From Eledone cirrhosa (lineage: Eukaryota): a DNA stretch of 64,000 nucleotides. The first letter of the stretch is position 1, and each line of letters begins with the position of its first letter. Below the pieces are notes generated by a model that ran no database searches, was not told the origin of the DNA, and saw only the letters and a list, made by a program, of their open reading frames with translations. A program made the position numbers and the translations under genes. The stretch spans positions 228,594,001 through 228,658,000 of the forward strand of contig OZ024742.1 in the NCBI GenBank assembly GCA_964016885.1. Direction: 5' to 3'. Shown piece after piece: positions 39,264 through 40,243 of the stretch.

Positions 39264-40243
39264 AGTTGAAAAAAAATGAAAACGAAATTTCATTTCTCAC
39301 TCTTAGTACGGCACTTACTTAAATGTAAGTATGTGTGTATACGTACATACATATATGTATACAGACGTACAGTAGCATGCATATATATATTATATATATA
39401 CATATATATATATACATACAGGTACACATACATATATGCACGTATCAGTTTAGCAGACGCTTATTATAACGCCGCTTTGTTCGTTTGTGAACAAACTGAA
39501 CAGCCTGAATTTTTATGCCGTACGGTGTTAAGGCAACCACGTCACCTTTTTGTTCAACACTGACACAGGAACGATGTACTAGTTTCAAGCTTGTTAGCTA
39601 TCATCAGCACCGTATACCCATCTGCCAGATAGTTGAACGTTCGAAAGTATATACTTTCCTTATGAAAATTAACGGCTGAGCAGCCTAATTTGCATATCGA
39701 GTGAGCTAAGTCGGTCAGGCATACCGAAAACGCTGAGTTGAAAAAAAATGAAAACGAAATTTCATTTCTCACTCTTAGTACGGCACTTACTTAAATGTAA
39801 GTATGTGTGTATACGTACATACATATATGTATACAGACGTACAGTAGCATGCATATATATATATATATATATATACATATATATATATACATACAGGTAC
39901 ACATACATATATGCACGTATCAGTTTAGCAGACGCTTATTATAACGCCGCTTTGTTCGTTTGTGGACAAACTGAACAGCCTGAATTTTTATGCCGTACGG
40001 TGTTAAGCAACCACGTCACCTTTTTGTTCAACACTGACACAGGAACGATGTACTAGTTTCAAGCTTGTTCACAAACGAACAAAGCGGCGTTATAATAAGC
40101 GCCTGCTAAACTGATACGTGCATATATGTATGTGTACCTGTATGTATATATATATATGTATATATATATATATATATATATATATGCATGCTACTGTACG
40201 TCTGTATACATATATGTATGTACGTATACACACATACTTACAT
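39264..40243 (-). mobile_element. Retrozyme-like tandem HHR repeat: 472-bp monomer, partial second monomer and inverted partial copy
   Basis: agttgaaaaaaaatgaaaacgaaatttc at 39264 and 39736; inversion junction near 40070; TA flanks. Confidence 0.85.
39571..39613 (-). ncRNA. Minimal type I hammerhead ribozyme
   Basis: Identical to 16477-16519. A truncated third copy lies at 40045-40069. Confidence 0.88.

Follow-up and report, generated by a model that had tools for sequence, protein, structure and literature searches.

A hammerhead retrozyme family of Eledone cirrhosa with Penelope-like insertion ends and a candidate U6-type promoter

Metazoan non-LTR retrozymes from coral, mussel and axolotl are tandem non-coding units with a canonical type I hammerhead and a palindromic helix III, according to the available part of PMC7229834. 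Their GC content is below 45%, they reach thousands of copies and they co-occur with Penelope elements. Unit lengths are 170–400 nt in that text and 51–972 nt in the accessible text of bioRxiv 10.64898/2026.07.22.740005, where a Penelope origin of retrozymes is argued from co-occurrence and from pseudo-LTR (pLTR) homology. Penelope-like elements of the Neptune and Poseidon types show 5' truncation, partial tandems, an inverted 5' copy, an optional tail between two initiation sites and microsatellite targeting (PMC8557442, PMC11167929 and PMC4209133, each in partial text). Promoters also occur within hammerhead repeats. In the SINE-like repeats of Schistosoma, the hammerhead of each unit comes after a Pol III promoter; since cleavage leaves the promoter in the 3' part, only tandems propagate (PMC6765202, partial text). 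In newt satellite 2, also a hammerhead repeat, the unit contains an snRNA-type promoter that drives Pol II (Coats, Zhang and Epstein 1994, as cited in the available part of PMC2220036).

We analyzed a 64 000-nt window of the Eledone cirrhosa genome (assembly GCA_964016885.1, contig OZ024742.1, positions 228 594 001 to 228 658 000, forward strand), in which a retrozyme-like repeat had been predicted from the letters alone. Retrozyme identity is supported on each DNA-level feature tested: by these features the repeat is a real, abundant, young, high-copy non-coding non-LTR retrozyme. The class is already known, and newt and schistosome provide earlier examples of hammerhead repeats that bear a promoter. 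The family has all the features listed above for coral, mussel and axolotl, with a unit of about 470 nt. As in the Penelope elements, there are truncations, partial tandems, an inverted copy, a tail and a microsatellite target; unlike them, the retrozyme has no reading frame and carries a canonical rather than a minimal ribozyme. Two fixed ends, inverted pairs of one long and one short arm, and an internal U6-type motif are undescribed for non-LTR retrozymes in the portions of the literature available. No published cephalopod or octopus retrozyme family, and no retrozyme U6-type promoter, was found in a search that left most subscription papers and Repbase outside its scope.

The main locus spans 39265..40246 and consists of two arms. 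One complete unit of 472 bp lies on the minus strand at 39265..39736 (unit positions q1 = 39736, q472 = 39265; 37% GC). Upstream of it is a 5'-truncated unit (q142–472, 39737..40069, minus strand) that is 98.5% identical to the complete one and retains only the 3' half of the hammerhead. The inverted arm, also 5'-truncated (q240–417, 40062..40246, plus strand), terminates at the short 3' end, and the arms meet through 5 nt of microhomology (40065–40069). An internal (TA)n spacer at 39380..39415 falls within a long predicted hairpin and sets unit length, which ranges from 456 to 538 bp across loci. The tail of about 55 nt, from the short end (q414–417) to the long end (q472–474), occupies 39265..39319 on the minus strand and contains one hairpin and a T-run at 39269–39276. 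The insertion is flanked by (TA)18 at the long end (39229..39264) and by (TA)n where the inverted arm reaches its short end (40247..40275). The monomer, the partial second unit, the inverted copy and the TA run are all as the original prediction had them. The unit is non-coding: a splice-donor-like word and short frames lead into no coding frame.

The second locus, 16224..17113 (minus strand), is 93.6% identical to the first. It has one hammerhead (16477–16519) and an inverted arm that terminates at the long end (16907–17113). Its unit had been described as a 434-bp variant, but the junction at 16608/16609 is single in the whole genome, making it a private deletion of about 39 nt. The two loci do share an identical 43-nt ribozyme, as predicted; by our arithmetic this is weak evidence alone, as it has a chance of about 6% at 93.6% identity. 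The TA spacer of this locus also contains a foreign hammerhead fragment (16774–16850, minus strand) with a longer helix III. It belongs to another hammerhead family, and eight fetched loci have it too.

An exact 36-nt core has 10 391 matches in the genome and its reversed control none, so the hammerhead motif is not due to chance. We sampled the first 100 core matches on one contig (C1), which gave 52 loci, about 1% of the total, with a bias to copies that span the ribozyme because loci were picked by exact core match. By extrapolation there are roughly 5400 insertions. Flanking DNA revealed two sister subfamilies, 86% and 71% identical to the 472-bp unit over aligned columns, with 10 575 and 8383 pattern matches; the pattern behind the latter count demanded the octamer described below and takes in some subfamily II copies. 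The claim of tandem organization holds for the family but only in part for the window. Among the 88 arms of the 52 loci, 25 cross the ribozyme site at least twice and so have at least two consecutive complete ribozymes. At neither window locus is this the case: the tandem is only 1.7 units long, its second unit ending before CUGAUGA, and each locus has a single complete ribozyme. Neither locus can therefore release a ribozyme-to-ribozyme monomer in cis, and both copies are predicted to be dead ends.

The hammerhead of the main locus is 43 nt long (39571..39613, minus strand) and has, in order, a 6-bp helix I, CUGAUGA, a short helix II, GAAA and a 2-bp helix III with a palindromic loop. Cleavage is predicted between 39577 and 39576, that is, between GUA and cauc. 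The original prediction gave the same cleavage point but was not right in calling the ribozyme minimal. By the definition in the available text of PMC4209133, a minimal hammerhead is one with a long helix II and no loop on helix III; this one is a canonical metazoan type I. An extended helix I (39551..39638, minus strand) closes the ribozyme domain and is retained via compensatory changes. For the ribozyme with this helix, 96% of cells are paired across 11 sequences from the three subfamilies, compared to 32–48% in slid controls, and 8 of 21 pairs have changes on both sides. Since the sequences were hand-picked and related, these amount to three consistent states rather than independent events. 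We conclude from this comparison that the fold is under selection.

Other results on the ribozyme are less clear-cut. The Rfam match is weak (Hammerhead_HH9, 18.6 bits, E 0.049, gathering score 52), a U-U replaces the G-C beside the core in helix II in 7 of the 11 sequences (subfamilies I and II), the core CUG is paired with the loop of helix III in lowest-energy folds, and a two-copy cofold gave no double hammerhead. Among Xenopus retrozyme dimers, one of nine cleaved in vitro (partial text of bioRxiv 10.64898/2026.07.22.740005). On the modeled structure, the unit is predicted to encode a self-cleaving RNA. The 150 matches listed in an Rfam scan of the whole window were rejected as false matches to microsatellites, which also dominate repeat-finder output on the window.

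The 3' ends of the copies are not random. Of 85 scorable ends in the 88 arms, 41 are long, 34 short and 10 elsewhere; thus two fixed ends about 55 nt apart hold 75 of them. The other 10 fall mostly at the TA spacer, an insertion spot for other elements. With few exceptions, 3' ends continue into (TA)n. Arms also pair by end type: among 23 inverted pairs, 18 join a long to a short end, none join two long or two short ends, and five involve another end. The same long–short pairing was seen in one complete autonomous Penelope insertion of family A and two of family B, the three that we inspected. On the 5' side, ends are scattered, and alignment breaks account for some of those at q5 and q357. 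A tail, an inverted copy and microsatellite bias are marks of Penelope elements (available text of PMC8557442), and the anole Penelope enzyme initiates in vitro at two internal sites and extends both strands (PMC11167929, partial text). The tail of about 55 nt compares to 30–40 nt in the available parts of the Penelope papers and to about 37 and 95 nt in the two host families. From the fixed ends, the long and short arms and the TA target, we infer that a Penelope-like enzyme very probably mobilizes the family, in line with the mobilization originally proposed.

We looked for the partner element in 48 loci of Penelope families A and B and in 0.75 Mb of masked flanks and did not find it. Family A has a 777-aa frame with RVT_1 and GIY-YIG matches; family B has an 809-aa frame with no Pfam match. 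Both are intact, young and present in the same genome. Neither they nor the masked flanks resemble the retrozyme apart from other hammerheads. No frame with reverse transcriptase and GIY-YIG domains was found beside the copies at the 52 loci. Young family A copies (L149, L150) have a hammerhead with a U3-A8 core variant, an upstream frame of 325–427 aa and a microsatellite-rich 3' region. At one locus (L061:3209–4600), a short-end retrozyme arm is joined without TA to a fragment of the family B frame, whose other arm stops at the family B long end. This fusion may be a template switch that names the partner, or a nested insertion plus deletion. The latter could explain both it and a second fusion (L012).

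Our main reading, with a probability of about 0.7, is that the retrozyme was inserted into (TA)n by a Penelope-like enzyme and is transcribed from its own U6-type promoter. Transcription would begin about 10 nt ahead of helix I, and some transcripts would pass the T-runs into the next unit. Two successive hammerheads would then cut out a unit-length RNA that includes the promoter sequence, to be closed by an RtcB-type ligase. At a (TA)n target, a Penelope RT-endonuclease would nick each DNA strand and prime at two internal sites. Copying beyond the ligation point would produce multimers, and two truncated cDNAs would be joined through microhomology. More tentatively, and on balance doubtful as a whole, the family may be a self-sufficient ribozyme retroelement: a host U6-type Pol III promoter captured in a circular RNA, leaky termination that yields monomers, and a Penelope enzyme that rolls from two sites, one per DNA strand.

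The ends constrain the template. Measured downstream from the cleavage site, the short end is at 257 nt and the long end at 312 nt, the latter a few bases past the T-run, so the template reaches past both the cut and the T-run. If 5' ends were uniform, about 2 of the 88 would fall within 5 nt of the cleavage site, and only 1 does; as 25 of the 88 arms also cross this site at least twice, the template on which copying stopped was not a cut linear monomer. Units were compared at 20 multi-unit loci, which supply 63 of the 89 near-full units among the 115 extracted. Divergence is 0.46% within loci and 3.4% between loci, alike in both arms, and 134 variants are locus-wide, 74 private and only one shared by a subset. 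For 44 of the 63 units, some other locus has one that is as close or closer, because haplotypes are shared. Near-clonal units fit one monomer copied repeatedly, as proposed in the available text of PMC7229834, and a circular template without proving it. We slightly favor a circle as the usual template. A-to-G editing scars were not seen (private variants: 3 A>G versus 9 T>C; shared rare variants: 3 versus 2).

Alternatively, Penelope insertion could proceed as above from an uncut linear multimer of a young homogeneous array, with the ribozyme and circle as by-products. This is possible but rather unlikely. Insertion by the anole enzyme in vitro is unaffected by hammerhead mutants (partial text of PMC11167929), and two long subfamily III arrays do have periodic subset-shared variants, at 7 sites each, and two subfamily I arrays have 3 subset-shared sites. 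However, linear multimers should transmit unit-specific variants, and in the 20 loci 68 of the 74 private variants are rare across loci while one variant is subset-shared. Unit length also differs by 7.5 nt within loci versus 26.5 nt between them, and the ribozyme fold is under selection. One of the subfamily III arrays (L274–L275) is 14 kb long, with about 30 units, a short end and, in inverse orientation, an arm with the long end; its variants recur with a period of 3–4 units. The periodic variants suggest that these arrays later grew in place or came from a multimer template.

The promoter of the schistosome hammerhead repeats is tRNA-type, whereas the motif of the retrozyme resembles an upstream type-3 (U6) promoter. 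An octamer had been noted at 39688–39695 and 16594–16601, and it is indeed there, 75 nt ahead of stem I on the ribozyme strand. In the main locus it is part of a 14-nt motif (39684..39697, minus strand) that matches an element upstream of host genes for U6, U6atac and RNase MRP. This element, TATG(C/G)(A/T)AAT(T/G)AG, is at -76 to -78 in five promoters that also have TATA at -30: those of the three best U6 loci, of the best U6atac locus and of the one RNase MRP gene (L248, L249, L250, L280, L286). A matrix built from these five promoters scores the three retrozyme subfamilies at 20.5, 20.5 and 17.1 bits (0 of 300 shuffles each), the best match being on the ribozyme strand in all three. Host sites score 17.3–20.8 bits, nine U1/U2 promoters at most 5.6 and two Penelope pLTR regions at most 1.3. 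Excluded from the matrix were 14 further U6 and 5 further U6atac matches, retrocopy-like and without the motif at -77. Some U6/U6atac retrocopies (L263, L264, L265, L281, L282) directly follow (TA)n or the ends of TA-targeting repeats.

The octamer is also conserved across copies, being intact in 42 of 46 loci, and 12 letters of the motif are invariant between subfamilies only 71% alike. A TATA-like box follows (39648..39653, minus strand), 42 nt past the ATG of the motif in this locus and 42–43 nt in the family, compared to 46–48 nt in all five host promoters. From the position of this box, transcription would start at about 39618–39626, just before helix I, an arrangement like that of the Schistosoma repeats. 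From the predicted start onward, transcription would meet runs of four or more T before reaching the next ribozyme; the longest run at the long end is 4 T in 39 of 57 cases and 6 or more in 14. U1, U2 and U6 host genes have a common distal element at -258 to -289; it is absent from the retrozyme unit (3.6–5.4 bits versus 16.5–23.6 at host sites). Overall, the U6-type promoter match is credible but imperfect, and the odds that it is functional are a little better than even.

The original prediction of an own promoter cited the octamer of newt satellite 2; it is supported here in a different form. We compared 15 U1/U2 upstream regions, 13 of them from a set of 30 loci. Their common elements are a TCAGT word in the proximal part and the distal element near -260. 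They have no octamer at a common position, and the only octamer among them is at -399; the octamer was thus rejected as a U1/U2 enhancer. The U1/U2 proximal motif was not found in the retrozyme unit either (5.7 bits versus 10.4–15.3 in the host). As U1/U2 genes lack an octamer enhancer and Pol III type-3 genes have the motif, the newt model is not directly transferable; the match is to host Pol III genes and not to U1/U2. The human H1 promoter is reported to serve two polymerases (PMC7949045).

The octamer-TATA block could instead be an RNA structure, a protein-binding site or the relic of a captured promoter, with transcription from outside promoters. We regard this, too, as unlikely, though it has points in its favor. 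The 14-nt motif forms one side of a predicted RNA hairpin, and the opposite strand of this hairpin is conserved too; the spacing is 4–5 nt short, and insect U6 genes keep it tightly (available part of PMC1761439); the distal element is absent, and the extended helix I begins upstream of the predicted start site. Yet hairpins tolerate compensatory change, and this does not account for 12 identical letters between subfamilies 71% alike. Nor does it account for their agreement with the host Pol III motif, which covers sequence, strand and order relative to TATA.

Copies might also be solo or stacked pLTRs of an unsampled autonomous Penelope element. All the end features of the retrozyme are Penelope pLTR features (partial text of PMC8557442), 24 of 57 Xenopus retrozyme families match transposable elements, nearly all of them Penelope-like element ends (available part of bioRxiv 10.64898/2026.07.22.740005), and our full examination covered only two Penelope families. 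Against this, 5' ends at the 52 loci are scattered inside the unit or enter another unit, and the 17 flanks inspected have no common upstream sequence. The pLTRs of families A and B and the 0.75 Mb of masked flanking DNA bear no likeness to the unit, and both families have different hammerheads and lack the promoter motif. This reading is therefore improbable. An ordinary satellite grown by DNA-level duplication is scarcely credible, and the dispersed copies contradict it: they are short insertions, thousands of them, with fixed ends and inverted arms, and they are truncated at random on the 5' side; duplication patterns in long arrays suggest at most their later growth.

Other elements were seen nearby and elsewhere in the genome. 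The window has Penelope-type minimal hammerheads with a long helix II at 5112–5286 and 53725–53779, the first two of them an inverted pair. At 19654–21964 there is a decayed RT-endonuclease frame of a Penelope element, with family A as its relative (41–55% identity), and LINE endonuclease/reverse transcriptase-like frames were recognized by eye at 42057–45515 (minus strand), 54568–55551 and 55665–58515 (both plus strand). A separate, unrelated tandem hammerhead family with a 310-bp unit is present at L106:2234–3210 and at four other loci (L010, L040, L041, L153). Its helix I directly adjoins sequence that matches the distal element of host snRNA genes (20.1 bits, 0 of 300 shuffles), and the U1/U2 proximal motif was not found in it (best 6.2 bits).

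The retrozyme copying enzyme and mode of transcription are proposed steps in the available literature, and this family predicts both at nucleotide level. With its predicted priming sites, start site and promoter, and with young intact Penelope frames in the same genome, both are directly testable. The insertion ends give genome-scale support for two-site, two-strand priming, previously known from one in vitro system, and the host Pol III promoters are candidates for driving small-RNA expression in this animal. If the reading as a self-sufficient retroelement is true, each new retrozyme tandem brings its own promoter, and, taken with the distal element of the 310-bp family, snRNA-promoter capture may be a recurring route to retrozyme independence.
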